Source: Promethearchaeota archaeon
GTDB lineage: Archaea > Asgardarchaeota > Lokiarchaeia > Sigyniarchaeales > SOKP01
Assembly (NCBI GenBank): GCA_030606485.1
Contig: JAUWGH010000007.1
Location: forward strand, 60,001 to 92,000
Direction: 5' to 3'
DNA length: 32,000 nucleotides
Numbering within the stretch: position 1 is the first letter of the stretch; the number at the start of each line of letters is the position of its first letter. Below are positions 4,031 through 30,341 of this stretch, one piece after another. Under the pieces are notes generated by a model. It had not been told where the DNA came from, did not search any database, and was given only the letters and a program-made list of their open reading frames with translations. A program made the position numbers and the translations under genes.

Positions 4031-4195
4031 TGCAGGGAGTGGGATTCGAACCCACGAAGAGCTATCTCACCGGATATCTCATCTGAAATTAGTGAGATCA
4101 ACGGAAATCATATTAATTAGATCTTGAGTCGAGCTAATGAGAAAGCTTTTTTCCCAAAAGAGTCCGGCACCGTTGACCAACTTGGTTATCCCTGC
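4031..4195 (-). tRNA. tRNA-Leu(CAA) with two introns (34 nt, probably 32/33; 47 nt at canonical 37/38)
   Basis: Acceptor GCAGGGA/TCCCTGC, anticodon stem CCGGA/TCCGG, long variable arm and T-arm GTGGG-TTCGAAT-CCCAC. Removing both inserts gives the loop CT-CAA-GA and an 84-nt tRNA. Intron 2 (4076..4122) has a perfect CTCA/TGAG BHB helix. Confidence 0.9.
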
Positions 4196-4329
4196 TTGAA
4201 GAATTTTTAAATAAAATAATATTTCAATAAATAAAAATCATTTTATAATCACTTTAACCAGACTTAGTCTTATAAATAATTAATAGTTTAACATAGTTTT
4301 AAAATCAAGATCAATTGAAAAAAGAAGAT

Positions 4330-4374
4330 ATCCTGTGGCGTAGACCTACAGGGGTTCAAATCCCTCCTCCTACA
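4330..4374 (+). pseudogene. Orphan 3' half of a tRNA-Leu (split-tRNA half or relic)
   Basis: A-TCCTG-TGGCGTAGACCTAC-AGGGG-TTCAAAT-CCCTC-CTCCTAC-A aligns with the 3' half of tRNA-Leu(GAG) at 28906..29018. I found no matching 5' half (GTAGGAG...CAGGA) nearby. Confidence 0.75.
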
Positions 4375-4402
4375 TTCCTGAAATTATTTTATTTATAAAA
4401 AA

Positions 4403-4630
4403 TTAGCCTCCCCCCATTAGGAACATGACAATGAACATTACAACCATCATACCAATTAGAAAATACATCTGAATTTTGGATTTTTTTTTCTTTTTTTTCT
4501 CGTAAGATATTGCAGAATCCTTACAATCTTGGCCACAATATTGCTTACCTTCTGGTATAGCCCTTCCACAGATAATACAATGTTCATGAGGACCATATTT
4601 TTTTTGTATTTTATCTTTCCAACTTGACAA
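4403..4630 (-). CDS. DUF2116-like Zn-ribbon membrane protein
   Basis: PHEHCIICGRAIP...YCGQDC plus a C-terminal TM helix. Confidence 0.8.
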   Translation of the reverse strand: MSSWKDKIQKKYGPHEHCIICGRAIPEGKQYCGQDCKDSAISYEKKKKKKSKIQMYFLIGMMVVMFIVMFLMGGG

Positions 4631-4690
4631 TAACTTAGACTCCTAATAATAATTATTAATAAATAATAAAATAAAATTAAAAAGTTTTGT

Positions 4691-5407
4691 TCAATTCTGA
4701 TCTGACTTAATAACCGTACCAATTCCAGATGGATTTCCATCTAAAATTTTTTTTAACTGAGTTAAATCCTTTCCCGAAAAAATTCTTACATTTAAATTAC
4801 TTCTCTTTAATATTTGTAGGGATACAGCATCAAATATACGATATTCACCTGCTGCTGCTTGATTATTGCTGGATGATTCAAGAATAAGATTTTGAAGTTG
4901 AATTTCTGTTAATTCATCAAACTTTGTAGCATCTGGGAATTTCTTTGGATCTTTATTAAAAATACCTTCAACATCGGTCATAATTAAAATCTCATCTGCA
5001 TTTAAAAATTCTGAGACTTCTAATGCAACTGAAGTAGTAGATTGACCTGGTTGTAATCCGCCAAGCACTAAAATTTTTTTAAATAACATATTTTTTGCCA
5101 AATCTTCTATTGTTTTTAATGCCATTGGAAAAGATGCATTTCCCAAACCTTCAATTATCAATCTAGCATTTAATCTTGATATGTAAATACCCATCATATC
5201 GCATTTCGATTCATTTACACCAAATTCCCTAAGTGTTTGAATATATTTTCTAGCAATAATTCCCCCCCCGCAAACAATAGCTAAAATATCATCTCTGGGC
5301 CTAATTAACTCGCAAAATTTTTTGATTTTCGTCGAATTAATCTGATCTCCTTCAAATAAAAGGGAACCTCCAATTTTTATAACTCTTTTAAGAGACATAA
5401 ATTTCAC
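4691..5407 (-). CDS. pyrH: UMP kinase (archaeal)
   Basis: VIKIGGS, VCGGG.IAR.YI, GGLQPGQSTT, TDVEGIFNKDPKK. Probable start is ATG at 5398. Confidence 0.95.
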   Translation of the reverse strand: MKFMSLKRVIKIGGSLLFEGDQINSTKIKKFCELIRPRDDILAIVCGGGIIARKYIQTLREFGVNESKCDMMGIYISRLNARLIIEGLGNASFPMALKTIEDLAKNMLFKKILVLGGLQPGQSTTSVALEVSEFLNADEILIMTDVEGIFNKDPKKFPDATKFDELTEIQLQNLILESSSNNQAAAGEYRIFDAVSLQILKRSNLNVRIFSGKDLTQLKKILDGNPSGIGTVIKSDQN

Positions 5408-5472
5408 AATAACTTATTTAGATTATTAAAACCTTGTAATATTAATTAGATAATATATAAAAAAAGCTTTCT

Positions 5473-6432
5473 ATGTCATTAAATACCTCAGAAATTTTAA
5501 TTAAAGTACCTCACAGAATTTCTGGATTCTTTCAAATCGTTGATGAAATTAACGGAATCAAAATTGGGAACCCAGAGAAAATTGGTTCTCGAGGAGCAGG
5601 TTTTTGTATTACAGCATTTGGATATACAAAAATCTCAATCCAAGATATTAAAACTTCTAAGGAGAATAAAGTTCAGATTTTAATTAATGGACAAGAGCAA
5701 ACTAAGAATGCAAAGACTACAAACTATATCTTCTTATACCTAAAGGAATTTTTTAAGAAAAAAGTGAAAATGAGAATCGATCATAATTTTGATCTTCCTG
5801 TTGGCTGTGGTTATGGGGCAAGCGGTTCAGGAGCTATTGGCACAGCATTAGGGATTAATTTTCTTATGGATTTAAATTTACCCTATGATGAACTTGGAAA
5901 AATTGCCCATATTGCAGAAGTAGAGAATAAAACAGGATTAGGTACTATAGCAGGTCTATGGCATGGAGGACTTAGTATAATTTTAAAGCCTGGATATCCA
6001 TTTATTGTAGATAAAATACCCTATCCCAAAAACTTAAAGATAATTTCTGGTACATTTGGTGAAATACAGACAAAATCAATTTTATCAGATCCCTTATTAA
6101 GCTTAAAAATAAAAGATGCCGGAAAAAAAGCCATGATAAGGATATTAAAATCTCCCGATATTTTTATTTTTTTGGACGAATCTATTAATTTTGTAAAACA
6201 AACAAATCTCTTAAACCGTCTAAACCTTTCAGAATGTCAGGATTTAATGAATTCTCTCAATAAGCTGACAAATGTGAAAGCAAGTATGAATCAATTAGGA
6301 AAGTCAATATTTGCAATATGTTTCCCTGAAAGGGTTAATGATGTTATTGAAGTATATGAATCCTACAAACCACAAGTTAAAATTTTTAATTTAGAAATAT
6401 GTCCTAATGGACCGGTAATTTTAAATCAGTAA
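5473..6432 (+). CDS. pok: Pantoate kinase (GHMP family)
   Basis: VPHRISGFF, GSRGAG, LPVGCGYGASG, AHIAEV...TGLGT; clustered with PPS and KPR. Confidence 0.9.
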   Translation: MSLNTSEILIKVPHRISGFFQIVDEINGIKIGNPEKIGSRGAGFCITAFGYTKISIQDIKTSKENKVQILINGQEQTKNAKTTNYIFLYLKEFFKKKVKMRIDHNFDLPVGCGYGASGSGAIGTALGINFLMDLNLPYDELGKIAHIAEVENKTGLGTIAGLWHGGLSIILKPGYPFIVDKIPYPKNLKIISGTFGEIQTKSILSDPLLSLKIKDAGKKAMIRILKSPDIFIFLDESINFVKQTNLLNRLNLSECQDLMNSLNKLTNVKASMNQLGKSIFAICFPERVNDVIEVYESYKPQVKIFNLEICPNGPVILNQ

Positions 6433-6463
6433 TTACTATAATTTGACTTAAAAATTATATTTT

Positions 6464-7735
6464 TTAAAAATCAATTATATATCTTAATAATCCTACAACT
6501 CCACCAAAAGTGTGTAAAACCATTTCACCATCTTCTGTGTTTGTAGATATAATTTCAATATTTGTTCCCGAAGCCTCGGCCAATTCGCCTAATTCTTCTA
6601 TTAATGATTCTTCTTTAGTAATATTAAACAAACTAGATTGGCATTTTGGACATGATGTATTTTGAATTTCTTCCCTTACTTTTGCTAACTCGTCTAATTT
6701 CACAGTTCTTGTTTCTGAATATTTACATGCCTTGCATTCAATCTTTACAGCAATAAGATCTAAATCCTCTGAAAATATTAAATATTCTAACGCTCCATAA
6801 TTTAAAGCTTTTCTAATTTCCTCTTCACCATAAACTGCCTTACCTGTTTCTCTTGCTAATTCCCCTAAAAATTTTTGAACAATTTCTTTTTCGCGTATAT
6901 ATTTTACATTTTTAATATCATCTTTTATTTTTAAAACTAAAGGTCTTATTCCTTCCTTACCACCATAGCCGAGATCGACGGTATTTATGATTTTTTCTCT
7001 TAGTCGATAATCTAAACTCCCATCCTTTACAAATTCATTTTTTGTAAAACCTGGACCACCTATAAAGATCCCTTTTAATTCATCTACATTTAAAAAAACT
7101 TCGTTGCAATAACTAGCAACACGTCTAATAAATCTTATTTTTCCTTCTTCTATAAGCCGAGAGAATCTTACCGATGATTGACCTCCAGCTCTATGTTTAC
7201 TATGCGTTCCAGAGGTAAAATCCTTTAGTATCTTCATATAACTTCCTTTCAAATATCCAACGGCTGCCTCCCCTCTATCAATAACAATCAAACCATATAC
7301 ATCATGTTCCTCTAACATATATTCTAATGGTTCTAAAAAAAATTCACTAGCACAATGATACTTGAAGATTGTAACTTTTTCAGGAGGTTCTAATATATAA
7401 ATTTCATTTTTTTCTGTACCTGGAGCATTTCCTTGTGGTATTGCTCCAGAAAATATAATTAATCCATTTTCAGGAACTTCTTTAAAATTTTTTAACTGCC
7501 CTTGCAAACTTGCAATGCTATCTAAAACATTCTTTCGAGTTAATTTTGATTTGATATTTTGACTTTCAGCAACCTCATTTTTAAGATAATTAGTAACATC
7601 AGAAAGTTTTTTATCATGAGGAATATACAAACTTATTAATTCGGTATGAAATCCTTTCTTTTTACGCAAAAAATCTAATAATTTTTTTGTCTTAAATTTT
7701 TTTAAGTCTTGACTCTTTTTTGATCTTTCTGACAT
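6464..7735 (-). CDS. prf1: Peptide chain release factor aRF1/eRF1
   Basis: TELISLYIP, NIKS, YHC (YxC), KHRAGGQS (GGQ), GPGFTK and a C-terminal Zn minidomain. Confidence 0.97.
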   Translation of the reverse strand: MSERSKKSQDLKKFKTKKLLDFLRKKKGFHTELISLYIPHDKKLSDVTNYLKNEVAESQNIKSKLTRKNVLDSIASLQGQLKNFKEVPENGLIIFSGAIPQGNAPGTEKNEIYILEPPEKVTIFKYHCASEFFLEPLEYMLEEHDVYGLIVIDRGEAAVGYLKGSYMKILKDFTSGTHSKHRAGGQSSVRFSRLIEEGKIRFIRRVASYCNEVFLNVDELKGIFIGGPGFTKNEFVKDGSLDYRLREKIINTVDLGYGGKEGIRPLVLKIKDDIKNVKYIREKEIVQKFLGELARETGKAVYGEEEIRKALNYGALEYLIFSEDLDLIAVKIECKACKYSETRTVKLDELAKVREEIQNTSCPKCQSSLFNITKEESLIEELGELAEASGTNIEIISTNTEDGEMVLHTFGGVVGLLRYIIDF

Positions 7736-7801
7736 TTAATTCTCTTACCTAAAAAAATCTGTAATAAAATTAATATTTTTTTATATTTTTTTATATTTAA
7801 G

Positions 7802-8593
7802 ATGAACCAACCGAATGAAAATATTGACCTCATCCCAGACTCACATCCGCGTGCAAAATCTCTTAGAGAAAGACACAAATTAATAATAGGAATGAAAAAC
7901 TTAGTAGTTGCAGAAGCGGGATTAATTGCTCATGGTAGAGGTGAAGCTTTTGATTACATTCTTGGAGAAAAAACAAATCCACCGGCGATAAAAGCAATGA
8001 ATGCTGCTGTAGCTATGTTAATGCTTGCTAAACATCCAATAATAAGTGTAAATGGAAATACAGCTGCCTTGGTTTCTAAAGAATTAGTTAAATTATCCAA
8101 AATACTCAATTCTAAATTAGAAATAAATTTATTTTATAGAAAAGAAGGACGAGTTGAAGCAATTAAAAATATGTTAGTAAAGGCAGGTGCAGAAGAAATT
8201 TTAGGAATAAACGAAATAGAAATGGTTGAGATTGAAGAATTGACCAGTAATCGTAGAAGAGTTGCCCCTAATGGAATAAAAATAGCAGATGTGGTATTTG
8301 TTCCCTTGGAAGATGGTGATAGAACAGAAGCATTGAAGAAATTAGGAAAAAAAGTGATTGCAGTTGATCTTAATCCATTAAGTCGAACATCCATTAATGC
8401 TGATATTACCATTGTAGATAACATAATCCGAGTAGTACCTAAAATGATTGAGATCGCCAAGAAATTAAAGGAATATACCAAAAAAAGATTAAATGAAATA
8501 ATATTGAAATTTAATAATAAAAAAAATATTTGCACTATGTTAAATTTAATAAAAGAATATATAGAAACACAAAAAGAAGTCTCTTTTAGATAA
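7802..8593 (+). CDS. pps: Phosphopantothenate synthetase (4-phosphopantoate--beta-alanine ligase)
   Basis: SHPRAKSL..R, GLIAHGRGEAFDYILGE, ISVNGN, VPLEDGDRTEAL, DLNPLSRT. Confidence 0.95.
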   Translation: MNQPNENIDLIPDSHPRAKSLRERHKLIIGMKNLVVAEAGLIAHGRGEAFDYILGEKTNPPAIKAMNAAVAMLMLAKHPIISVNGNTAALVSKELVKLSKILNSKLEINLFYRKEGRVEAIKNMLVKAGAEEILGINEIEMVEIEELTSNRRRVAPNGIKIADVVFVPLEDGDRTEALKKLGKKVIAVDLNPLSRTSINADITIVDNIIRVVPKMIEIAKKLKEYTKKRLNEIILKFNNKKNICTMLNLIKEYIETQKEVSFR

Positions 8594-8690
8594 TAGAATT
8601 ATTGCCTAATATTATGTAAATAAAAAAAAAATAATTATTTAAATTAAAAAAAAATTTTATATCTAGTAAATCTTTAAATATATTAAGAAT

Positions 8691-9239: not shown

Positions 9240-9247
9240 ATTAATAG

Positions 9248-10273: not shown

Positions 10274-10283
10274 CTTTAATAAT

Positions 10284-11150: not shown

Positions 11151-11625
11151 TAAAACCTAAAAACTATTTATTTTATTTTTAATAATATTAAAAACATAAA
11201 ATTTATAATTTCAATGATCTTTTAATACTATGTTGGTATTAAATTTGTAAGTTATTGGGAGCAAATTATTTCATCCTCGCCCCAAAACAGGATGCAATAT
11301 CCTAATAACTAGCACAAACATTATGGAAGAAAATCAAAAATTTTGGGGCATTTGATTTTTCGGGAAATGATGTTTAAGCTAGGCACAAGAAATTTAAAAT
11401 TTTTATAATTACATAATAATTAACTTGGAAACACAATCCAGAATTTCAATAATTTCAAATTTCATTACATTTAAGCTTTCCATGTATCTCTTGATCTTGT
11501 GCTCATAGGAATATATTTTTCCAAACAGGTAAACGTCTTAGGTATTTAAATATCTAAAAAATTAAAACAAACAAACTAATTCTAAATATAAGCACTCTAA
11601 ATCTTCCTCTGAGTAGTATCCAATA

Positions 11626-14792
<3,167 letters not shown>

Positions 14793-15107
14793 GGATATGA
14801 AAAGTGGATTATAGATTTAGGCTTAGAATATTTAGGATTGGAAATGGTTTAAAGACGTTTCTGTTGGGAGAATATATTCCTAAATTTTTTTTTTATTTCT
14901 ATTTTTTTAATTCAATTATTATCAATTTTCCGAGAAATTTAATTAAAATCCTAAAATAAATTTTCTAAATAATAAATTTCAGGAAAACGTCAAAAATTTT
15001 TAAGTAATATCATAAATACAAACCGACAAAATACTTTTACACTAATCTTTTGGGGACTTTTTAATAATATAATAATAAAAATAAGAAATAAATGAGGATT
15101 TTATTTT

Positions 15108-15872: not shown

Positions 15873-15918
15873 TACGTAAATCAAAATCTTTTTTTTTAAA
15901 ATTAGCAATACTTTATTT

Positions 15919-16713: not shown

Positions 16714-16804
16714 ATAAAGGAAATATTTATTTCTTATTTTTTTAAAGTATGTTTCAACAACCATCTATTAAAAAAAAAAGGAGTTTATAATTGTAACTGT
16801 AGAT

Positions 16805-17311: not shown

Positions 17312-17330
17312 AAATTTTTTTACAAAGCGC

Positions 17331-18119: not shown

Positions 18120-18339
18120 AAAATTACTTCTATGAGATGATTGATTAACTTTAATTTAATATTAATAAATGTTTTAATTAACATAAATTAATAAATTGTC
18201 TATATTAAAAAATATCAAATAATTTTCGATTTAATATTTTTTTTATTAATTACACAATCGTTGTTTAATAATATCTCTTTATAACTAATTGCCGACAAAA
18301 ATATAATTATTGTTTATTGATAATTCTTACTTATAAAAT

Positions 18340-18534
18340 ATTTCCTTTGGAGTAAAAAACAAAAATAAAAATTTATTAAGATTTTTCGATTTTGGAAAAT
18401 AATAATTAATTAATAAAAAATATTAAAAACCTAATAAAAGATATTAATGAGTTCTTAATTTTCTTTTGATTAATAGGAAGATTTAAATATTCTCTCCAGA
18501 TGAAATTTTTTATTGAGGTTAATTTCAACTGGAA
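18340..18534. promoter_or_regulatory. Candidate replication origin: three mini-ORB-like elements around an AT-rich tract
   Basis: CTCCAAAGGAAAT (-, 18340..18352), CTCCAGATGAAAT (+, 18494..18506) and TTCCAGTTGAAAT (-, 18522..18534), immediately upstream of or overlapping the start of cdc6. Confidence 0.65.
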
Positions 18535-19894
18535 AACAATCTTAGAATTTATATTAGCTAGGGAAAAAGTTTTGAAAGAAAATAATGAATTGAATTATAA
18601 ATTTGATATTTCACAATTTTATACAGATTTTTTGAAAAGTCCTAAAATATTTAAAAATAGGGATGCGTTAAATCCAACTTACATTCCAAATAACCTACCT
18701 CATCGTGATATACAGATAAAAAAAATTGCTGAAATTACAGCTTGCCTGTTAAAAGATGGAGTTCCTTTTAATCTTTTAAGTTATGGAAAGACAGGAACAG
18801 GAAAAACTTCAGTCATAAGGTTTGTTAGCAGGAAACTTGATGAAAAATGTAACGAAATTCAAAGAAATAGACCTTGGTGGATTTATAACAATTGTCAGCA
18901 AGTTAATACTCCGTATAGAATTTTAGCAAATATTTTTAATACTCTTTCCATAGAGGAAAAAATCCCGCCAACAGGTTTGCCAAAAGATATAATTTTTCAA
19001 AAGCTTTTAAATTTGTTAGATGATGTTGTTGGCAACTCTGTATGTTTTATAGTTTTGGATGAGATCGATATTTTGATTAAAAAAAAAGGTGGAAATGAAA
19101 TATTATATGATTTAACTAGATTAAATGAGAAATATCAATTAAAAAAATGTAGGGTTTGTTTAATTGGAATATCAAATATCTTAAAATTTAAAAGTTTTCT
19201 TGATCCTCGAGTTTTGAGTAGTTTTGGTGGAGAAGAATTAGTTTTTCCCGCTTATAATGCTGAGGAATTGACAGATATTTTACAAGAAAGAGCTGAAATT
19301 GCTTTTTTTAAAAACGTGATATTGGAAGAGACAATTCCATTATGTGCAGCGCTTGCGGCAAAAGAACATGGAGATGCTAGAAAAGCTCTACAATTACTTA
19401 GAAAAGCAGGTGAATTAGCAGAAAGAAGTCATAATAAAAAGGTGTCATCAAAATTTGTTTATAAAGCTCAAAAATCTTTAGAACAAGATAATACGGAACA
19501 ATTCATAGAGAGCTTACCAAAGCAAATTCAATTAGTTTTATGTTCTATTTTTCTAATTACAAAACATCTTCCTAACTTAAAAATAATTACTGGTGATATT
19601 TATGATGTTTATCTTGAAATTTATGATAAAATTCCTGGTGTTAAGAAATTAACACGAAGGAGAGTAAGTGATTTAATAAATGAGCTGGCATTAGCAGGTA
19701 TCATAAAAGCTGAAGTAGTATCGATGGGTTACTATGGTCGTTCAAAAATCGTAAAATTAGATATGCCATTAGATCAATTATTTAAAATTTTAGAAAAAAT
19801 TGAAAATATAAAACACATCCTTAATTATAAACCCATTATTGCACAAAAAGGAAAAGCAAAATTAAATAAAAATACTTTTAAAAAATTATTTTAA
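18500..19894 (+). CDS. cdc6: Cdc6/Orc1 replication initiator
   Basis: YIP..LPHRD, Walker A GKTGTGKT, Walker B LDEID, EHGDARKAL.LLR, C-terminal wHTH. True start is probably a downstream TTG. Confidence 0.97.
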   Translation: MKFFIEVNFNWKTILEFILAREKVLKENNELNYKFDISQFYTDFLKSPKIFKNRDALNPTYIPNNLPHRDIQIKKIAEITACLLKDGVPFNLLSYGKTGTGKTSVIRFVSRKLDEKCNEIQRNRPWWIYNNCQQVNTPYRILANIFNTLSIEEKIPPTGLPKDIIFQKLLNLLDDVVGNSVCFIVLDEIDILIKKKGGNEILYDLTRLNEKYQLKKCRVCLIGISNILKFKSFLDPRVLSSFGGEELVFPAYNAEELTDILQERAEIAFFKNVILEETIPLCAALAAKEHGDARKALQLLRKAGELAERSHNKKVSSKFVYKAQKSLEQDNTEQFIESLPKQIQLVLCSIFLITKHLPNLKIITGDIYDVYLEIYDKIPGVKKLTRRRVSDLINELALAGIIKAEVVSMGYYGRSKIVKLDMPLDQLFKILEKIENIKHILNYKPIIAQKGKAKLNKNTFKKLF

Positions 19895-20565
19895 ATAAAT
19901 TCCCAATTATCAAGTTCTTCAATAATATTCGTTAATATCTTTTCAGTTTTTGATTCATTTTCTGATTTTAAAATTATAAATAATTTTACTAAATGTTTAC
20001 ATAACTTTTTTTGTCTACTCTTGCGAGTTAAATAATCATGGCAATCATGAATGATTTTTTTTTTATTTAATTCAACTTCAAATTTATAACGCTTTTCTTT
20101 AGTACCACTAACCTCTCCTCTTATTATTCCTTGATCAATATTAAGTTCGTGAAATGTAAAAGAATTTTTAGAAACTGATACTGACCTATTTAGAGTACTT
20201 TCATCTGATAATTCTTTTAAAAGCATATTAAAAGAACCTTTTCTTTCTTTAGAAAGATCATTCAGACTAATTGCTTTTAAACTAATATCTTCTAGCGCAT
20301 TTTTCACTTTTTCATTCTCTTTTTTTTGCAAAGTAATGAAATCTTCTCGTAATTCTTTAGAAAGTAAAATTTTACCACTTTTTTCAACTAAAAAACCTTT
20401 TTTTATTAATTCATTGACTAATTGAACTGATTTATTTGGTTTTAAAAGAAATAATTCAAAAGAAATATAATAAATTAGCTCTTCCCTCCCAATTGAAGGA
20501 AGATCTAAGCTCCTCCAAATATATATTATCAATTCCTTATGATTTGAAGGTGTTTTATTAATCAT
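19891..20565 (-). CDS. DUF2240-like N-terminal domain fused to SWIM-type Zn finger
   Basis: N-terminal helical region (ELIYYISFEL..LKPNKS..LV..LIKKG) plus HDCHD...LCKHL. Its stop overlaps the cdc6 stop in TTAA. Confidence 0.7.
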   Translation of the reverse strand: MINKTPSNHKELIIYIWRSLDLPSIGREELIYYISFELFLLKPNKSVQLVNELIKKGFLVEKSGKILLSKELREDFITLQKKENEKVKNALEDISLKAISLNDLSKERKGSFNMLLKELSDESTLNRSVSVSKNSFTFHELNIDQGIIRGEVSGTKEKRYKFEVELNKKKIIHDCHDYLTRKSRQKKLCKHLVKLFIILKSENESKTEKILTNIIEELDNWEFI

Positions 20566-20598
20566 TTTTTTTACAAAAATTAGTTATTATTTAATAGA

Positions 20599-22467
20599 TT
20601 AACTATTTAAATTGATTTCTGTTATTTTCCTTTTATCTAGTTCAACAATACCAATCCTACCTGGAGTTGGATTGATTCCGAAAGATTCCATATATTTAGT
20701 TTTATTTTGAAAGCATCCACTATTTACTAATAAAATATTACGATAATTCCCAAAACCACTTATATGAATATGACCGGTATGAAAAATATCAGGAATAGTA
20801 TCAATTACTAACCAGTCTTTTCTCATTGGAGCAATTAGATTTTTTCCTCCGTATGAGGGCGCTAAATGTCTAAATCTCAATATTTCTTTCATTGATTTTG
20901 TGGGTTGTTCGTGAGATAAACCTGGAATTGACATATTAAGATCAATTAAACTGTCACCATGAAATGATAATGTTTTTACGCCTTCAGTTTGAATTAAAAC
21001 TGGATCTCCCACACAAATAACACCCAAATCAAACAAACCATCAATATATTTTTTTGGAACAGCGGGTTGAGGCAATGCCTTATGCACGGGCTCATGAGAT
21101 CCAGGTGAATAAAATATCTTTATATAAGATGGGATCTCTCTTAATAACTCTGCTGCTTTCTCATATTGTTTATAAATATCTGAAATTTCTAAATTTTCTT
21201 TTTGATTGGGATATATCCCAATTCCATCAATTAAATCTCCTGCTATCATAATATATTTAATTTTACCTGCAAAATCTCTTGTTTTTTGGTTTCCAAACTT
21301 TCCATTCAAAAATTTAATGAATCTTTTCCATAATTTTGGAATAAATTTTTTACTTCCAATATGCAAATCGGAAATTAATGCAATAGATAAAGGAGTATCA
21401 GAATATGCTGGGTTAAAAGAAACTGGTATATCTATTTCTGTAAGATTTCGAACAAAAATTATTCCAGGTCTATTATTTTCCCCAGGTCTATAAAAACCTT
21501 CGACGTAAATCATTATATCATTTACTAAATAATTCGTTTTTTGGAACAACTCATAATTAATTGAGTCATTTTTTACTAAAAGATTTATTCGTCCAGTTAA
21601 ATCCTCAATTTGTATCATTTTATTGTCAGATGATGTTGTTTTAATGCTTATGATTAATCCTATTACTTTTACCTCGCCTACTTGATTTAACCTTAATATA
21701 TTTGCAATATTATTTGCCGCTGAAATATTTTCTCGTTTTCTCATTAATTTTTTAAATGAATAAAATCTGTCTTTAAAAAGTTCCATAAAATCTTCGTATG
21801 ATCCCGAAGTATGCATCTTTCCGGTTGGATCTTTTAATATCTCATAGTTTGCATTATATTCTTTAGCTAACGGACAATATCTTTTTATACTAGAAGAAAT
21901 TTGATTTATTTTTATTTTATCAATTTCAACCTTACTATCTTGGCTATTATCAATTTTGGAAGAATTTTGAATTTTCGTCTCGTAAGCTGATTCAACATCA
22001 TAATTTTCAGAAAATAAATCGTCTTGATAAATTTCGGGAGGTGAAATTTTCTCGTTAATTTCATTATCTTCTTGCTCACGAATGGTTTCAGATTCAGCTT
22101 TAATGTCGTCACTTTCTTGTTTTTTAATTAAACCTTCTGAAATGTCTGAAATTTTCTCAATTTCAACAACTACATTTTTAGTTTTTATGATATTTTTAAA
22201 TTTTTGATATTGATTAAGATAATTCGTAAAAATGTTTGGTCTTTTATTATTTGGAATCTTTAGTATCTCATCTACTGTAATATGATTGTTAAAAGAAGGT
22301 AAGAAACTTGTTTCTTTTATTAATATATCAATATTTATATTTGGATCATCTGACTCCAAAATTAAAGTAAATAGTTCTGGTGATATGTTAATACCAGATT
22401 TTAATAATTTCTTAATTAAAAACTTTCTGATCTCTATTTGATTATAACGTGAGTGATTTCTTTCCAT
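20599..22467 (-). CDS. polB: DNA polymerase D small (proofreading) subunit DP1
   Basis: OB fold followed by phosphoesterase motifs SDLHIGS, AGDLIDG, PGSHE, FHG, HTGHIH. Confidence 0.96.
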   Translation of the reverse strand: MERNHSRYNQIEIRKFLIKKLLKSGINISPELFTLILESDDPNINIDILIKETSFLPSFNNHITVDEILKIPNNKRPNIFTNYLNQYQKFKNIIKTKNVVVEIEKISDISEGLIKKQESDDIKAESETIREQEDNEINEKISPPEIYQDDLFSENYDVESAYETKIQNSSKIDNSQDSKVEIDKIKINQISSSIKRYCPLAKEYNANYEILKDPTGKMHTSGSYEDFMELFKDRFYSFKKLMRKRENISAANNIANILRLNQVGEVKVIGLIISIKTTSSDNKMIQIEDLTGRINLLVKNDSINYELFQKTNYLVNDIMIYVEGFYRPGENNRPGIIFVRNLTEIDIPVSFNPAYSDTPLSIALISDLHIGSKKFIPKLWKRFIKFLNGKFGNQKTRDFAGKIKYIMIAGDLIDGIGIYPNQKENLEISDIYKQYEKAAELLREIPSYIKIFYSPGSHEPVHKALPQPAVPKKYIDGLFDLGVICVGDPVLIQTEGVKTLSFHGDSLIDLNMSIPGLSHEQPTKSMKEILRFRHLAPSYGGKNLIAPMRKDWLVIDTIPDIFHTGHIHISGFGNYRNILLVNSGCFQNKTKYMESFGINPTPGRIGIVELDKRKITEINLNS

Positions 22468-22801
22468 GCCCTATTAGCAAATTCCATAAATTTTTTAAAT
22501 ATTAACTTATAAAATCCAACAATTTTAATTCTATTTGAATATTTTTTATATTTTTTTAATAACCTCTTAAGATATAAACAAAAGAAAATAATAAATGAAA
22601 ACTCCATTTTACTTTATTAATTTTTACAATTAATCAAAGTAATATAATAAATTTTTTATATTTTTATAAAAAATAATAGCACTGTATATCGCTTTAACAG
22701 ATATTGAATATCTCCTTAATAATAGGAATAAAATATAATATGGTACTATATAGTTTTACATTACAGATTTTACAACTATAAAAAAGAATATTTGGTTTAG
22801 T

Positions 22802-25800
22802 ATGGTAGTATTAAGTAAACGGCAAGAAGAATATTTTAATGAGCTAGAACAACGAATAAATCAAATTTATGATATTGCAAAAGAAGCGAAAAGTAGGGGG
22901 TTAGATCCATCAACAGATGTAGAGTCTCCTATTGCTAAGGATCTTGCTGGGAGAGTAGAAACTTTAATTGGACCAAAAGGAATTGCTAAACGCATTAGAG
23001 AGTTAAAAGCGAATGGATTAAATGAAGATGAAATTGTATTTGAAATTGCAACAGAAATATTAGATAAAAAATTAGGTAACATTGAATCAAAGGATGAAAG
23101 AGTTGATAGAGCAATTAGAGCAGCATTAGCGATTAAAACACAAGGTGTTGTTTCAGCTCCATTGGAAGGAATTTCAAGAATTCTTATCCGAAAAGACAAT
23201 TTAGGTAACTCTTATTTATCTTTGTACTTTGCTGGACCTATACGAGCCGCTGGTGGAACAACGACTGCATTATGCATATTACTTGCTGATATGGTAAGAA
23301 AAAAAATAAATTTAGCTAAATATAAGGCTACTGAGGGAGAAATTGGGCGAATGGTGGAAGAAATAAAACTTTATAATCGTATTTTAAATTTGCAATATCC
23401 TGCATCTAATGAGGAAATTAGATTTGCAGTTAAAAATTTACCTGTAGAAATTAATGGAGACCCAACAGAAAAAGAAGAGGTATCAGCTTTTCGGGATCTC
23501 CCTCGAATAGATACTAATAGAATTAGGGGTGGTGCATGTTTAGTTTTAAATGACGGAATCCTTTTAAAAAAAAGCAAACTTCAAAAGATTACCAAGGAAA
23601 TGAATTTAAGTGGATGGGAATGGCTGGATGAGTTAATAAAAGTATCTGAATCAGGTGAATCGAAATTAAATAAAGAGAATATAATATCTAAGCATCAAAA
23701 AATTGTGAAAAATGAAAAATTCATTGCTGATATTATCGCTGGAAGACCAGTCTTTAGTTATCCTTCAGAAACTGGAGGTCATCGAATTCGCTACGGTAGG
23801 TCACGCAATAGTGGATTGGCTGCATGCGGGATGCATCCAGTAACAATGACTCTTTTAGATAATTTTGTAGCCATTGGCACTCAAGTTAAAATAGAAAGAC
23901 CCGGAAAAAGTGCCTCTATTGTTCCAGTTTCTAGTATTGAAACACCAATTGTTCTGTTAAAAAATGGAAACGTAGTAAAGATAAAAACCAAATCTATGGC
24001 TAATAAATTATACAAAGATATTGAAAAAATTCTCTTTTTGGGAGATATTCTTATTAGTTTTGGAGAATTTGTTGAAAATAATCATATTTTAGTCCCATCT
24101 GGATATTGTGAAGAATGGTGGGCTCTAGATTTAAAGAATTCATTGGAAAAGAATAAAGAAAAAATTAAAAAATTTCCCATTGAGGAAGAGAGATTAAAAT
24201 CTTATCATACGGACTTCTTTAAAAAGATACCTTCTGCGGAAGAAGCAATTGCTATTAGTAAAATTCTAAATATTCCACTTCATCCGGTTTATACTGATTT
24301 TTGGAATAACTTAACATTAAAAGAAATCATCTCATTAAGAAAGTTCTTTATAGATAATTATAAAAATGGGATTTTAACTTTGGATATAATTCCAGAAATT
24401 AAATCTATCCTAGAGAAAGCTTTTATCCCGCATAGAATTATTGACAATAAAATTGTATTTAGCAAGGCAAAAAATAAAATCTATGAGGAAATTTTCGGTT
24501 TAAAATCTAAAAAAGATATTGATCTCTCTAAAATATCAAATATCTTTGACTTATTCAATTCATTATCTGCCATGAAAATCAAAAATATGTGTTACCATTA
24601 TATAGGATCCCGGATGGGGCGACCAGAAAAATCTGAAGAAAAGAAAATGAAACCTCCAATTCATGTATTATTTCCCTTAAGTAAAAAAGTAGGCAGCTCT
24701 CGTACTATTCAAAAAGCAATTGAATTGGGTAAGATCAAAATTGATATTTGCAGAAAAAAATGCCCTAATTGCAATACGATTACTATTTTTAATAAATGCA
24801 ACACATGTGGAACTCACACAAATTTCCAAAAATTTTGCCCTAATTGCAAGAAATTCGTTGATGCAAAAAATGTATCTTGTCCATATTGTAACGGAATGCT
24901 GAAAAACTCAACTCCAGCATTATTCAATTTTAAAAAATATGTTAATTCAATTATGAAAGAGATAAATCATTCTCTTCCCAATGTCAAGGGTGTATATGGG
25001 CTTACAAATTTAATGAAAGTTGCAGAACCACTCCAAAAAGGAATCTTGAGAGCATTACACGGAGTTTTTGTATATAAAGATGGCACAATTCGTTATGATG
25101 CAACTGATCTCCCATTGACACACTTCAAACCAAATGAAATTGGTACTTCTATAAAGAAACTAATTGAATTTGGTTATTTATATGACATTTATGGGAAACC
25201 TCTTGAAAACAATGAACAAATTCTTGAATTAAAAGTACAAGATATTCTTTTATCTGAACATAGTGCAAAATATTTTGTAAAAGTTGCCAATTTTCTTGAT
25301 GATGAATTGAAAACTTTCTATAATATAAATCCATTTTATAATATTAAGAATACATCTGATTTAATAGGCCAAATCTTTATAGGCTTAGCACCCCATACTT
25401 CCGCAGGAATAATTGGGAGAGCTATTGGCTTTTCATCAGCTAGAGCTATTTACGCACACCCTTTCTGGCATGCTGCGAAACGTCGAAATTGTGATGGGGA
25501 TGAAGATGGATTGATGCTATTAATGGATTGTTTACTTAATTTTTCACTGCATTATCTTCCAAGTAAAATTGGAGGAAAAATGGATGAACCACTTGTTATA
25601 TCAGTAAGGCTTGACCCAAATGAAATTGATTCAGAGGCCCATAACATTGATACTCTTTATCAATATCCCTTAGAATTTTATGAAAGTACAGAGAAATATT
25701 TGGATCCTATTGAAATAATAGATAAAATGGAATTGGAAAGCACACGTCTCGGATCTGAACTCCAATTTGAACAACTTGGATTCACTCATCCCACTGAATC

Positions 25801-26245
25801 AATTAATGCTGGCCCTCTTACTACGGCTTATAAATTATATGAAACAATAGATGAAAAAATACATGCTCAATTATATTTGGCAAAAATCATAAAGTCTGTA
25901 AATGTCCAAGATGTTGCCAGAAGAATTTTAAAAACTCATTTTACTCCTGACATTCTTGGAAACCTGCGTTCATTCACCAATCAAAACTTTAGGTGTGTTA
26001 AATGTAATGAAAAATATAGAACCCCACCTTTATACACAGGAGGAATATGTAAGTGTGGTGGAAAAATCATCTTAACAGTGAATCGTGGTGGGATCGAAAA
26101 ATATATACCCCGGTCATTAAAGATAATAAAAGAATTTGATTTAGATAATTATACTAAACAAAGAATGGAATTAATTGAGTCATACGTAAAATCCGTAGCT
26201 AACAATCCAAAAATAAGGCAACATCATTTATCAGACTTTTTCTAA
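22802..26245 (+). CDS. polC: DNA polymerase D large subunit DP2 (no intein)
   Basis: GVVSAPLEGI, YFAGPIRAAGGT, RIRYGRSR, RMGRPEK, DGTIRYD, catalytic KRRNCDGDED, Zn modules. Confidence 0.99.
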   Translation: MVVLSKRQEEYFNELEQRINQIYDIAKEAKSRGLDPSTDVESPIAKDLAGRVETLIGPKGIAKRIRELKANGLNEDEIVFEIATEILDKKLGNIESKDERVDRAIRAALAIKTQGVVSAPLEGISRILIRKDNLGNSYLSLYFAGPIRAAGGTTTALCILLADMVRKKINLAKYKATEGEIGRMVEEIKLYNRILNLQYPASNEEIRFAVKNLPVEINGDPTEKEEVSAFRDLPRIDTNRIRGGACLVLNDGILLKKSKLQKITKEMNLSGWEWLDELIKVSESGESKLNKENIISKHQKIVKNEKFIADIIAGRPVFSYPSETGGHRIRYGRSRNSGLAACGMHPVTMTLLDNFVAIGTQVKIERPGKSASIVPVSSIETPIVLLKNGNVVKIKTKSMANKLYKDIEKILFLGDILISFGEFVENNHILVPSGYCEEWWALDLKNSLEKNKEKIKKFPIEEERLKSYHTDFFKKIPSAEEAIAISKILNIPLHPVYTDFWNNLTLKEIISLRKFFIDNYKNGILTLDIIPEIKSILEKAFIPHRIIDNKIVFSKAKNKIYEEIFGLKSKKDIDLSKISNIFDLFNSLSAMKIKNMCYHYIGSRMGRPEKSEEKKMKPPIHVLFPLSKKVGSSRTIQKAIELGKIKIDICRKKCPNCNTITIFNKCNTCGTHTNFQKFCPNCKKFVDAKNVSCPYCNGMLKNSTPALFNFKKYVNSIMKEINHSLPNVKGVYGLTNLMKVAEPLQKGILRALHGVFVYKDGTIRYDATDLPLTHFKPNEIGTSIKKLIEFGYLYDIYGKPLENNEQILELKVQDILLSEHSAKYFVKVANFLDDELKTFYNINPFYNIKNTSDLIGQIFIGLAPHTSAGIIGRAIGFSSARAIYAHPFWHAAKRRNCDGDEDGLMLLMDCLLNFSLHYLPSKIGGKMDEPLVISVRLDPNEIDSEAHNIDTLYQYPLEFYESTEKYLDPIEIIDKMELESTRLGSELQFEQLGFTHPTESINAGPLTTAYKLYETIDEKIHAQLYLAKIIKSVNVQDVARRILKTHFTPDILGNLRSFTNQNFRCVKCNEKYRTPPLYTGGICKCGGKIILTVNRGGIEKYIPRSLKIIKEFDLDNYTKQRMELIESYVKSVANNPKIRQHHLSDFF

Positions 26246-26435
26246 TCCTATCCTAAATCAAATTTTTTACTCACTTCTATTAAAACGCGATTATAAAAAA
26301 TCTAAATTAATATTACAATTGATTTTTTAAATAAGCAAAATTATGTTAAAATTATAAGAAACAGTAAATGTAATTAATATTTTACTTAAGAATCCACAAA
26401 AAAAATAGTGTTTAAAGAAAGGTATTGGTTTTAGA

Positions 26436-28835
26436 TTGAGTACTGAAAACCCACTGCAAAGAACCATCAAGTTAAAAATGGATCTTCTTTCAAGTGATTA
26501 TGATTTATGCATAGAACGTATTAAATTCTTTACCGAAATATATAAAGAAAACAAAGAAGACCCTGAAATTTTGAAAAGAGCTAAGGCACTTGCACACACT
26601 TTAAAGAACATGACTATTTTTATTAGAAATGATGAATTGCTTGTCGGAAATGAAACGAGTAAAAATTTAGGTGAGAAAATCAATTTTGATTTACTTTCCT
26701 ATGATGATAATTTTAGTAAACGTAGTAGTATTTTAAAATTCGGAAAAAGAAAACTTCAACCTTTCCAAATTGAAGATCATGAAATTGATGATTTATTAGA
26801 GATTGTTCCATTTTGGAAGGGAAAAGCTTTATATAGTGAAATTATATATCAACGATTGGTTGATGAAAAGCTTATCAGTAGCTCTAGAAAGTTAGCTGCT
26901 GTTGTTCCTAATATCGCTATCCAAATAGGAACTTCTGAAGGTCATTTATCTGCTGGTTATGAAAAATTACTAAAACTAGGTTATGCTGGAATAATTAAAG
27001 AAGCTGAATCATATCAAAAACTACTAGATAAGAATGATCATAAATATCAGGAAAAAAAAGATTTTTATGAAGCTGTAAAGATATATTATAAAGCAGCCAT
27101 TGATTTTTTATTACGTTATTCAGATCTTGCTTATGTAAAAGCATATAATGAAAAAAATGACCAGCGAAAAAATGAACTCGAAACCATTGCAGAAATGATG
27201 AAAAAATTTGGTCAAAAGCCTCCTGATTCCTTCTATGAAGCGATTCAGTATATATGGTTTACTCAAAATATAATAAACATCATTTATAATAGAAGTGTTG
27301 TCGCTTTAGGAAGATTAGATCAAATCTTATGGCCCTATTATCAAAAAGATTTAAAACAAAATAAGATTACTCACGAATTTGCTTTAGAATTAATAGAAGA
27401 ATTAAATTTAAAATTAACTTGGAATGTTACAATATTACCAACAGATTATACAATGATTGCCAATGCACTAGGTCAAAACACTCAAACAATAACTATTTCT
27501 GGGATGGATAAAAATGGAGTTGATGCCACAAATGATCTTTCTTATCTCTTTCTTGAAGCTTATAGAAATCTAAAGATTTTTACTACGGACTTATCGGTAA
27601 GAATACACAAAAATACACCAAAAGAATTTTTTAAAGAAACAATAAAAGTTTTCAAATACACCTCAGGAATAGCATTTTATAATGATGATATAATAATCCC
27701 ATCATTGGTTAAAGCAGGATATTCTTTAGAAGATGCTCGAGATTATGTTTTAATTGGATGCGTTGAACCTACTGGGCAAGGTAACAGTTTTGAAGCAACT
27801 GCTCGAATGTTTCTGAATTTACCTGGTGTTTTAGAATTAACTTTGAATAATGGGTATAGTAATATGTCAAAAATTGTTGATGGATTACAGACTGGAGATC
27901 CAACAATCTTTAAGACTTTTGAAGATCTTTTAGTAGCATTTATTCATCAATTAAAATTTAATATAAATAAGTCAGTAAAAATAGCAGAAGTGGGTGATAT
28001 TGAAGTAATGAAATACTTTCAAGATCCATTCATTTCAGCTACATTAAAAGGATGTATGGAGAGTGGTAAGGATTATGTTTGTGGAGGTGCAAAATATAAC
28101 TTTTCTTCCATAACCGGGTATGGTTTTGCAACATTAGTTGATTCATTATTTAACATTAAAAAAGTAGTATATGAAGAAAACCTAATATCGCTTCCTGAAT
28201 TCATTCAAATTATGAATTCTAATTTTAAAGATAAAGAATTATTTCGACAAAAATTGATTAACAACTATGATAAATGGGGAAATGATAAAAAAAATATTGA
28301 TTCCCTTGCAATAGAGTTATGGGATTTATATAGTTCTGAAGTTGCTAAATATGTATCACTCAGAGGAGGTAGATATAATGCCGGAGCATATTCAATGGGT
28401 ATACATGTTATGGAAGGTTTTTTTACCAGACCTACTGCTGATGGAAGAAAAGCAATGGAACCGATATCAAATAGTTTATCTCCCGTAAATAAAGTTGAAA
28501 AAAATGGAATTACAGCAATTTTAAATTCTGTAGCAAAATTAAATTATGATTACGCTACAAATGGAGTTGCAGTTAACATTAGAATTCATCCGCAAAATCT
28601 TGAAAAGGAGGAAAACGTAGACAAATTTTATTTCTTATTAAAATCCTACTTTGATTCAGGGGGTATGCAAATTCAACTAAATGTAGTTTCAACAGAAACT
28701 CTTAAAGATGCTCAGAAACATCCTGAAAAATACATTGATTTAATCGTAAAAGTAGGTGGATATAATGCAACATTTATTGATCTTGGAACACCAATTCAAA
28801 ATGACATAATTAACAGGTTAGAAAATATTTTTTAA
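26436..28835 (+). CDS. Glycyl-radical enzyme (PFL2/PflD-like, single Cys), substrate unknown
   Basis: GRLDQILWPYY, GCVEP, YGFATLVDSL, GGMQIQLNV, radical-Gly loop VKVGGYN. TTG start. Confidence 0.92.
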   Translation: MSTENPLQRTIKLKMDLLSSDYDLCIERIKFFTEIYKENKEDPEILKRAKALAHTLKNMTIFIRNDELLVGNETSKNLGEKINFDLLSYDDNFSKRSSILKFGKRKLQPFQIEDHEIDDLLEIVPFWKGKALYSEIIYQRLVDEKLISSSRKLAAVVPNIAIQIGTSEGHLSAGYEKLLKLGYAGIIKEAESYQKLLDKNDHKYQEKKDFYEAVKIYYKAAIDFLLRYSDLAYVKAYNEKNDQRKNELETIAEMMKKFGQKPPDSFYEAIQYIWFTQNIINIIYNRSVVALGRLDQILWPYYQKDLKQNKITHEFALELIEELNLKLTWNVTILPTDYTMIANALGQNTQTITISGMDKNGVDATNDLSYLFLEAYRNLKIFTTDLSVRIHKNTPKEFFKETIKVFKYTSGIAFYNDDIIIPSLVKAGYSLEDARDYVLIGCVEPTGQGNSFEATARMFLNLPGVLELTLNNGYSNMSKIVDGLQTGDPTIFKTFEDLLVAFIHQLKFNINKSVKIAEVGDIEVMKYFQDPFISATLKGCMESGKDYVCGGAKYNFSSITGYGFATLVDSLFNIKKVVYEENLISLPEFIQIMNSNFKDKELFRQKLINNYDKWGNDKKNIDSLAIELWDLYSSEVAKYVSLRGGRYNAGAYSMGIHVMEGFFTRPTADGRKAMEPISNSLSPVNKVEKNGITAILNSVAKLNYDYATNGVAVNIRIHPQNLEKEENVDKFYFLLKSYFDSGGMQIQLNVVSTETLKDAQKHPEKYIDLIVKVGGYNATFIDLGTPIQNDIINRLENIF

Positions 28836-28905
28836 TCAAACTTAAATTAAGAAAACACGAAATTTTGTTTCTTAATTATTTTTATCTAAAATTAAAAAAT
28901 TTAAT

Positions 28906-29018
28906 TGGTGAAGGAGGGGGGATTTGAACCCCCGAAGGCCTACGCCAATGGAACCTCAGTCCATCACCTCTAATCTCTTGATCTATATCAAGATTTGACC
29001 ATGCTTGGCGACTCCTTC
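28906..29018 (-). tRNA. tRNA-Leu(GAG) with 25-nt intron at ~21/22; CCA encoded
   Basis: Acceptor GAAGGAG/CTCCTTC; anticodon arm ATGGA-CT-GAG-GT-TCCAT. Intron 28970..28994 has helix GGTC/GATT, bulges AA|A and AG|A, and a 7-bp hairpin. Confidence 0.93.
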
Positions 29019-29230
29019 TCGATTTAGAATTTTTTAAAGAAATAAAGTCCAATTAATTATTTTAATAAAAAATTAAAAATTTTTCCAATTTAATTAGAAA
29101 AACAAATATTTAGATTATCATCCGAATAAGTTATTAATTTTATCTAAAAAATTTTTATTAAAGTCTATTATATTTTACTTAATTCTTATATTATTTACAA
29201 TTATAACTATAATTATATTAATTCCATGTC

Positions 29231-30238
29231 ATGTCAATAGATAGAAAAAAATTAGAAGCTTTATTAAGATGGTATTTTAATACTGTTGGAGAAGATCTTT
29301 TAGCCGCAATAATTGTAGATAGAGAAGGATTGGTCCTAGCCTCACAATCTCGAGAAGATAAAATTGATGAGGAAATAATTGGTGGTTTATCTTCACTAAT
29401 CGAGCCTGTATTGAAAAGAATTACACAAGAATTTAGTTCAGGGAATTTTGGGACAGGAACATTTGATACTGAGGAATATAGACTAATTTTTTGCGAAGCC
29501 GGAGAGGATGCTGTTTTTATCTCAATCTTGGATGGTATTGCAATGATTGATCCCATTTTTCCCTATGCTTATTTAGCTGCAGAAAAAATTGCAAGAATAT
29601 TTGATGGCCGAGAGGTAAGTCCCGTTATACCAAATCTTTATAAAAAGGTTGGGTCAGAAATAATTACAAAAAAAGAAGGAAAACTTCAACAGATTGGCGT
29701 AAAATCGGAAGAGTATGCTTACAAATTAATTCTTGGCGGAGAAGGCGGTGTTGGTAAGACTTCTATGGTAATGAGATTTGTTCATGATAATTTCCAAGAA
29801 AGTTATAAAGCAACAATAGGCACAAACATTATGAAAAAAGAATGTGAATTTAAAGATTTGAATACAAAAGTTCGTTTCGTCGTATGGGATCTTGCAGGAC
29901 AAGCTCAATTCGCTCGAGTTCGCCAAACCTATCTACGAAATTCTGAAGCAGGATTACTAGTATTTGATGTAACGAGAAGAGATACTTTTGATAAAATAAA
30001 GAAATGGCATGAAGAAATATTAAAAGATTCGAAGAAAACATCTTTAATTTTAGTGGGAAATAAAATTGATTTGATAGACCAGAGGGATGTAACAAAAGAA
30101 GAAGCAGAAGCACTCGCAAAAGAATTATGTCTCTCATATTTTGAAACTTCTGCGAAAGATGGAACAGGAATAAATGATGCATTTGAAATGCTTGCATTCC
30201 AAATGATTGATAAATTTCTTACCGTTAAAGAAATATAA
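29231..30238 (+). CDS. Roadblock/LAMTOR-like domain fused to Rab-like small GTPase
   Basis: N-terminal AAIIVDREGLVLAS roadblock pattern; G1 GEGGVGKT, G3 WDLAGQ, G4 NKID, G5 ETSAK. Confidence 0.92.
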   Translation: MSIDRKKLEALLRWYFNTVGEDLLAAIIVDREGLVLASQSREDKIDEEIIGGLSSLIEPVLKRITQEFSSGNFGTGTFDTEEYRLIFCEAGEDAVFISILDGIAMIDPIFPYAYLAAEKIARIFDGREVSPVIPNLYKKVGSEIITKKEGKLQQIGVKSEEYAYKLILGGEGGVGKTSMVMRFVHDNFQESYKATIGTNIMKKECEFKDLNTKVRFVVWDLAGQAQFARVRQTYLRNSEAGLLVFDVTRRDTFDKIKKWHEEILKDSKKTSLILVGNKIDLIDQRDVTKEEAEALAKELCLSYFETSAKDGTGINDAFEMLAFQMIDKFLTVKEI

Positions 30239-30244
30239 CAATAA

Positions 30245-30341
30245 AGCCTCTGGAGGGAATTGAACCCTCGACCTTCTGATTACGACTTCTGTGCTTTAAT
30301 ACATATACATATCAGACGCTATACCACTAGGCTACAGAGGC
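30245..30341 (-). tRNA. tRNA-Thr(CGT) with 25-nt intron at 32/33
   Basis: Acceptor GCCTCTG/CAGAGGC with U73. Intron 30286..30310 has a perfect TCTG/CAGA helix and bulges AT|A and AG|T. The spliced loop is TT-CGT-AA. Confidence 0.92.

Follow-up and report, generated by a model that had tools for sequence, protein, structure and literature searches.

Introduction

Genes for tRNAs that are interrupted by short bulge-helix-bulge (BHB) introns have already been described from Asgard archaea (Valentin-Alvarado et al. 2024, PMC11291895; Goswami et al. 2026, bioRxiv 10.64898/2026.10.13.758758). About 15% of tRNA genes bear introns in typical archaea (figure cited in PMC11291895), and the published loads for Asgard archaea are 0.91 introns per gene in the 'other Asgard families' (most Asgard families) and 2.2 introns per gene in the Freyr-, Jordi- and Atabeyarchaeaceae (PMC11291895; bioRxiv 10.64898/2026.10.13.758758). 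An Asgard tRNA splicing endonuclease (EndA) that is (alpha-beta)2 in kind and has an L1 loop has been reported as well (PMC5829648), and circular pre-23S rRNA has been observed in Asgard archaea (PMC12918454). Here, we analysed the tRNA and 23S rRNA genes, and the inserts within them, of a 32,000-nucleotide (nt) stretch of a Promethearchaeota archaeon (contig JAUWGH010000007.1, positions 60,001 to 92,000; hereafter the window), together with the genome it comes from and related genomes. Our reading, to which we give a probability of about 0.85, is that this is a Loki-type genome in which short archaeal BHB introns interrupt the 23S rRNA gene and the majority of the tRNA genes, that the load is genome-wide, and that an orphan tRNA half in the window is a remnant. 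An earlier account of the window made from its letters (the sequence-only reading) had put forward much of this, but it overstated the novelty, Asgard tRNA introns, (alpha-beta)2 EndA and pre-rRNA circularisation all being published.

Interrupted tRNA genes of the window

Four complete tRNA genes were identified in the window, three of which are interrupted, by four inserts in all. ARAGORN with default settings recovered one of the four, tRNA-Lys(UUU). Rfam at the gathering score added the 23S rRNA gene and a 97-nt tRNA at 30245-30341 (minus strand), and a relaxed E-value added a 165-nt tRNA at 4031-4195 (minus strand) and a partial tmRNA-like match at 28906-28970 (minus strand). By reading of the sequence and a search with an acceptor/T-arm pattern, a complete tRNA-Leu(GAG) gene was recognized, of which the tmRNA-like match is the 3' portion.

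The 165-nt gene encodes tRNA-Leu(CAA) (Rfam tRNA 42.2 bits, the anticodon loop being lengthened by an insertion of 85 nt) and contains two introns. The 34-nt intron (4128-4161, minus strand) is bounded by the repeat GACTC, which makes six registers possible; all were scored and 32/33 alone fits, with the central helix CCGG/CTCG containing one C-C mismatch and with flanking helices of 2 base pairs (bp). The 47-nt intron (4076-4122, minus strand) occupies the canonical position 37/38 in a strict BHB with the central helix CTCA/TGAG. The tRNA-Leu(GAG) gene (28909-29018, minus strand, with an encoded CCA at 28906-28908), which was overlooked by both ARAGORN and the Rfam tRNA model, carries a 25-nt D-loop intron at 21/22 (28970-28994, minus strand). 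Its BHB is relaxed, consisting of GGTC/GATT with two G-U pairs, an inner stem of 7 bp and an outer helix of 1 bp. The 97-nt gene encodes tRNA-Thr(CGU) (Rfam tRNA 54.1 bits), and its 25-nt intron at 32/33 (30286-30310, minus strand) has a strict BHB, TCTG/CAGA, with outer and inner helices of 3 bp each. The tRNA-Lys(UUU) gene (31544-31617, plus strand; ARAGORN, and Rfam 67.9 bits) is compact and intronless.

Removal of the inserts restores the 7-nt anticodon loops CUCAAGA and UUCGUAA as well as a normal Leu D-loop. Among the approximately 44 tRNA genes found in the genome, the anticodons of Leu(CAA), Leu(GAG) and Thr(CGU) are represented by these interrupted copies alone.

The 23S rRNA gene and its processing stem

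The 23S rRNA gene (11617-14798, plus strand; Rfam RF02540, 2601 bits, model positions 1-2987) contains a 30-nt BHB intron at 13445-13474 (plus strand), with the central helix CGAC/GTCG, the bulges AC-A and AT-A (the hyphen marks the junction) and a 5-bp inner stem. Infernal placed 31 nt against one model position at this insert, after position 1754 of the Rfam archaeal large-subunit model. The insert is located in a conserved hairpin loop, and the junction left by its removal is identical to that of intronless relatives.

The ends of the gene are flanked by a processing stem with its own BHB. The 5' strand and its bulge lie at 11576-11604 (plus strand, predicted cut after 11595), and the 3' strand and its bulge at 14813-14841 (plus strand, predicted cut before 14827). 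The motif has an AAGC/GCTT central helix, a 14-bp outer helix and an 8-bp inner helix; the flanks cofold at -92 kcal/mol, and the cuts would fall 21 nt upstream and 28 nt downstream of the mature 23S ends. This BHB probably represents the ordinary archaeal path to a circular pre-23S rRNA, and processing-stem BHBs and rRNA circularisation in archaea are attributed to Tang 2002 and Danan 2012, as cited in PMC12918454.

The gene is 3182 nt long compared with 2987 model positions. The excess beyond the 30-nt intron consists of expansion segments and not of introns. A hairpin extension of about 55 nt at 12363-12417 (plus strand) lengthens an existing helix and resembles expansion segment 9 (ES9), with which it agrees in position. 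It was considered as a second 23S intron and rejected, being a hairpin extension shared by the family with borders that lack a BHB; two relatives (G008 and G009) have a longer version of it, and other families of the order lack it. At a variable site near 14646, relatives hold 94-147 nt more, and the position fits ES39. Both ES9 and ES39 have been described for Lokiarchaeota (PMC7594248).

The window 23S gene stands alone, without a linked 16S gene. The only 16S match in the genome (G000:C2:450044-450885) covers model positions 4-828 and breaks off with 117 nt of the contig still to come, and the assembly lacks the rest of the gene, its 3' half. An intron or an assembly break is possible where the match stops.

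Geometry of the insert borders

All five inserts, four in tRNA genes and one in the 23S gene, were compared with the same BHB rule. Under this rule, the four exon bases that precede the last two pair with intron bases -6 to -3, one bulge comprises the two last exon bases and the first intron base, and the other comprises the two last intron bases and the first base of the 3' exon. Insert lengths range from 25 to 47 nt, and their G+C content from 28 to 38%. The 4-bp central helix is perfect in the exact register in four of the five, and the fifth, Leu(CAA) 32/33, has its single C-C mismatch. Among random border pairs in the window, a 4-bp central helix occurs in 2.6%, a share that falls to 0.17% when an inner stem of 3 bp or more is required as well. 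The combination of both, in the register that restores the mature RNA, is found in four of the five inserts. The motifs of Thr 32/33 and Leu(CAA) 37/38 have the strict hBHBh' form, and the other three are relaxed and HBh'-like with outer helices of 1-2 bp.

These results bear out the sequence-only reading in several respects. It had described three interrupted tRNAs out of four, with introns at 21/22, 32/33 (the second of two only as probable) and 37/38, a 23S intron and a pre-23S BHB, and inserts that are short, AT-rich and of BHB type; all of these were confirmed.

Comparison with related genomes

The relatives used here include G001, which belongs to the same genus and has a 23S rRNA 96% identical to that of the window, G002 of the same genus and G009 of another genus. 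Besides the window genome, G002 and G009 carry the 23S insert; G001, G008, G019 and G023 cleanly lack it. Its central helix CGAC/GTCG is replaced by TGAC/GTCA in G009, a C-G pair becoming U-A, and the inner stems of the intron differ among G002, G009 and the window genome yet still pair. BHB-bounded inserts were also found in relatives at four further 23S sites that are empty here, in G002 at the match to 13769 and in G009 at 13912, 14368 and 14434 (31, 30, 38 and 133 nt, the last at 14434). The 23S micro-introns are therefore patchily distributed across the family, over at least five 23S sites. A literature search found no description of such 23S micro-introns for Lokiarchaeia.

The tRNA introns vary in a similar manner. 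The two-intron layout of Leu(CAA) is kept in G001, G007 and G009. Its 32/33 helix is a perfect CCGG/CTGG in G001-G003 and a compensatory CTGG/CTAG in G009, where the 37/38 intron is 48 nt long with the same central helix. In G001, a T-A pair in the inner stem of the Leu(GAG) intron is replaced by C-G, which is a compensatory change; in G008, the D-loop site of this gene holds a different 30-nt insert. For Thr(CGU), a 20-nt intron with a better, 5-bp stem is present in G001, the gene is intronless in G021, and the insert lies in the variable region instead in G005. Both introns of Leu(CAA) and the D-loop intron of Leu(GAG) have kept their sites across genera. By these patterns of presence and absence, some introns are old and others, including the 23S micro-intron, are gained or lost among close relatives.

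A further variation concerns the anticodon loop of Leu(GAG) (28950-28960, minus strand), which reads CUGAGGU in the window genome and G002 and CCGAGGC in G001, G003 and G008. The loop CCGAGGC would put a C at the normally invariant U33.

These comparisons also bear on the idea that the inserts are not spliced at all and are either tolerated insertions, expansion-like in the case of the 23S rRNA, or marks of pseudogenes. The true expansion segments elsewhere in the same 23S gene and the one mismatched motif would fit such an idea. However, no other genes for the anticodons of the three interrupted tRNAs were found among the approximately 44 tRNA genes, and inserts kept in a D-loop or an anticodon loop would destroy tRNA function. 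The borders moreover stand in exact BHB register with compensatory changes, and the 23S insert lies in a conserved hairpin loop while being cleanly absent in close relatives. We therefore regard unspliced inserts as highly improbable and prefer to read them as BHB introns.

Genome-wide intron load

The host assembly is 3.75 Mb in size with a G+C content of 29% and a marker-based completeness of 100%. Its aRF1 shares 94-98% identity with that of Promethearchaeota/Promethearchaeia metagenome-assembled genomes, in agreement with the Asgard host named in the sequence-only reading, and the host is a Loki-type (Promethearchaeia) Asgard archaeon.

Among the approximately 44 tRNA genes found genome-wide, 33 reach a length of 91 nt or more and the other 11 are compact, so that about 75% are over-long in this census, which is based on gene length and gives the number of introns per gene only approximately. 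ARAGORN run with introns on the whole genome returned unreliable calls. Deletion of BHB candidates followed by a second ARAGORN run gave wrong isotypes, with Leu(CAA) called as SeC, and these results were kept for lengths only. The excess tRNA gene length sums to about 1 kb over the genome, suggesting approximately one intron for each tRNA gene. On this approximate basis, the intron density of the host is far above that of typical archaea and close to the 0.91 per gene of most Asgard families. The possibility raised earlier that the density might be no higher than is typical was not borne out, with 33 of about 44 tRNA genes being at least 91 nt long against about 15% intron-bearing genes.

Over-long genes make up about 75% of the tRNA genes of the genome, the same proportion as the interrupted ones among those of the window (3/4). 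The window is therefore a mirror of the genome average and no special locus, and the 'window-wide programme' of the sequence-only reading does not hold. The same figures speak to a related proposal, in which the window would form a local hot spot of active intron copying between sites, by intron transposition as proposed for Thermoproteales. The density of introns, four in four tRNA genes plus one in the 23S gene within 27 kb, and their polymorphism among relatives might suggest such a process. Yet, besides the equal genome-wide share, a blastn-short search found no sequence relatives of the five window introns or of three mRNA introns (described below) elsewhere in the genome, and the positions of the Leu introns are conserved across genera. 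The introns are unique in sequence, and copying between sites is therefore not demonstrated. A 2026 preprint likewise arrived at no general copying route (bioRxiv 10.64898/2026.10.13.758758). A copying hot spot is accordingly given very little weight here, and a genome-wide load of BHB introns is preferred. Active gain or spreading, as claimed before, is thus supported as regards turnover among relatives but not as regards copying and spreading, the introns being unique and the Leu introns old.

Splicing enzymes and proposed pathway

Genes for two EndA subunits and for RtcB were identified in the host genome. The EndA alpha subunit (199 aa, C10:67064 region) has the Tyr/His/Lys triad and aligns end to end and without gaps with the catalytic subunit of Aeropyrum pernix, 3P1Z_B. 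Its INKPR stands opposite VEKPR of 3P1Z_B, which puts a loop lysine at the K44 position. K44 of the A. pernix enzyme is reported to be the conserved lysine of the crenarchaeal N-terminal loop (Okuda/Hirata 2011). The EndA beta paralogue (206 aa, C10:670301 region) has a Pro in place of the catalytic His. RtcB is present with 579 bits. With a triad-bearing alpha and a His-less beta subunit, the enzyme is typed as a putative (alpha-beta)2 EndA with an L1 loop; a typing of EndA had been suggested as a check in the sequence-only reading. The heterotetramer and a broad substrate range would follow from homology and from PMC5829648. The relaxed-specificity EndA/RtcB system that had been postulated is consistent with these genes, a two-subunit EndA of the broad-specificity kind and RtcB being encoded and three of the five motifs being relaxed.

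In the proposed pathway, the exon beside the 5' junction would pair with the last intron bases and form a 4-bp helix between two 3-nt bulges. The (alpha-beta)2 EndA would cut both bulges, and RtcB would join the exons, the intron being released, probably as a circle. The same pair of enzymes would cut the BHB in the stem flanking the 23S gene, so that pre-23S rRNA would be released and circularised.

The geometry of the motifs, the presence and absence of the introns, their covariation and the enzyme genes were observed. Several points nevertheless weigh against our reading. Excision, ligation and circular products are predicted from sequence alone, and the specificity of EndA is deduced from its homology with the enzymes of Crenarchaeota. 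Counted as contiguous pairs, the outer helix is only 1 bp long in both the Leu(GAG) motif and the 23S motif, and the Leu(CAA) 32/33 motif here has a C-C mismatch and 2-bp flanks, so that this copy could be poorly processed. Automated intron placement is unreliable, and the census rests on lengths.

BHB inserts in protein-coding genes

A BHB intron in the cbf5 pre-mRNA is known in Crenarchaeota, and the sequence-only reading had considered mRNA introns worth seeking. In the window, a BHB scan that joins open reading frames (ORFs) gave low-complexity matches only, and cbf5 is an uninterrupted ORF of 325 codons. Two ORF pairs, 3306-3674/3706-4014 and 15108-15872/15919-16713, were considered as genes split by introns and rejected; the members of each pair are distinct genes, which G001 has in the same arrangement.

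Elsewhere in the genome, three BHB-shaped inserts were found in protein-coding genes; the window has no such mRNA intron. A 31-nt insert with a 10-bp stem in a gene for an AAA+ ATPase (G000:C1:76174-76204) splits the Walker A motif between GEPG and TGKT, and is exactly absent in five relatives, those of the same genus included. A 30-nt insert in a GH38 mannosidase gene (G000:C7:23173-23202) splits HWDRE from WY and contains a stop codon. This insert is shared with G005 but exactly absent from G001 and G002, and the exon codons that pair with the insert covary with intron presence (CGT vs AGG). A 32-nt insert in dnaG (G000:C2:~142590-142621) splits GAIFGQ from TEGLL and has the same core.

Genome-wide ORF-joining BHB counts showed no overall excess over register-shifted decoys; the sole excess was in GC-rich central helices (52 vs 27-39). 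Because the decoy-controlled counts lack an overall excess, mRNA introns are few and not pervasive. It is nonetheless fairly likely that EndA and RtcB also serve a handful of protein genes that would need BHB splicing, all of them outside the window. In the literature searched, crenarchaeal cbf5 is the only case described of a BHB intron within coding sequence, and nothing was found for Asgard archaea.

An orphan tRNA 3' half

A Leu-type tRNA 3' half is present at 4331-4374 (plus strand), starting where a 37/38 intron would end. It comprises the 3' strand of the anticodon stem, a long variable arm, the T arm and the 3' strand of the acceptor stem, and its T stem has an A49-C65 mismatch. All five Leu isoacceptors (UAA, CAA, UAG, GAG and CAG) are encoded by complete genes elsewhere. 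No partner 5' half was found in the 3.75 Mb searched with acceptor-strand patterns, for a sixth Leu-type D arm and for a complement of the leader. In G001 and G002, the invariant T-loop C56 of the orphan half is mutated and its acceptor strand has diverged; the neighbouring Leu(CAA) gene differs at only a few bases in these genomes. G001 and G002 also have about 87 nt more between Leu(CAA) and the orphan half, absent here and in G003, in which the minus strand shows the 5' fragment of a decayed Leu-like gene (GCAGAGATAACCAAGC...). This fragment is further debris of a broken tRNA-Leu gene.

Nanoarchaeum equitans has split tRNA genes, and the orphan half could in principle be a working half of this kind, joined in trans through a BHB to a separately encoded 5' half. 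It begins exactly at a 37/38-type junction, as the halves of N. equitans do, and GAT-ATCC at this junction resembles the last intron bases of Leu(CAA); it is also transcribed divergently from Leu(CAA) and has an AT-rich, promoter-like sequence upstream. The orphan half does not belong to this class, however: it has no partner half, no isoacceptor is missing, and it decays in relatives. With five Leu isoacceptors complete, there is no isoacceptor left to supply, and the assembly, 100% complete by markers, yielded neither a sixth D arm of the Leu type nor an acceptor 5' strand to match. The A-C mismatch in the T stem, the changes at C56 and in the acceptor strand of G001 and G002, and the decayed 5' Leu-like fragment on the opposite strand in these genomes likewise oppose a split tRNA, which we consider the least probable of the alternatives discussed here and very nearly out of the question. 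Since the isoacceptors are complete, the 5' half was not found and decay is seen in relatives, the orphan half appears to be a pseudogene remnant of a broken second tRNA-Leu gene, with no role. Of the earlier statement about this element, its presence at a splice-type junction stands, and its membership in an active splicing system does not.

Other genes of the window

A cluster of replication genes is located at 18500-26245 and may adjoin a replication origin. It includes Orc1/Cdc6 (18500-19894), the small subunit of PolD (20599-22467, minus strand) and the large subunit of PolD, DP2 (22802-26245). Between two of the intron-bearing tRNA genes, an ORF at 29231-30238 (plus strand) encodes a small GTPase of the Ras family that carries a Roadblock/LC7 domain at its N terminus. 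The Ras-Roadblock arrangement is an Asgard 'eukaryotic signature'.

Significance and comparison with known systems

With the present analysis, one more well-documented genome of Loki type joins the published record of Asgard archaea with heavily interrupted tRNA genes, and the patchy 23S micro-introns are a small addition to published knowledge. The window by itself changes nothing known about the origin of eukaryotic tRNA splicing, on which it had been said to bear. It does offer clean examples of D-loop introns that escape the finders, of old introns next to recently gained or lost ones, and of 30-nt BHB micro-introns spread patchily over the 23S rRNA genes of one family. These are useful test cases for the origin of archaeal introns and for the correct annotation of Asgard rRNA and tRNA genes.

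The pre-23S motif is like known pre-rRNA processing stems, with a long inverted repeat that flanks the 23S gene and a canonical BHB. The inserts in the AAA+ ATPase, GH38 and dnaG genes are like the crenarchaeal cbf5 intron in placing the same motif in coding sequence, although none of them lies in the window. Multi-intron tRNAs of Thermoproteales were reportedly also described by Fujishima in 2010. Such tRNAs are credited to Sugahara 2008, as cited in PMC11291895. The host resembles Thermoproteales in its non-canonical intron positions, relaxed BHB motifs and (alpha-beta)2 EndA with a crenarchaeal loop; unlike the intron sequence families of Thermoproteales, which suggest transposition, no intron paralogues were found in the host genome. 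Like the crenarchaeal 16S introns of Thermoproteales (PMC4496867), the 23S introns are BHB-bounded, lie in a conserved rRNA region and are patchy in close relatives. They differ in being in the 23S gene, in being Asgard, in their length of 30-38 nt (133 nt once, in a relative) and in being ORF-less.

The closest likeness is to the published Asgard tRNAs, with which the host shares short BHB introns, many of them non-canonical, multi-intron genes and recurrent gains on the tree. D-arm introns likewise escape standard finders, as is the case here for Leu(GAG). Unlike the Freyr-, Jordi- and Atabeyarchaeaceae with 2.2 introns per gene, the host belongs to Promethearchaeia and has roughly one intron per tRNA gene.

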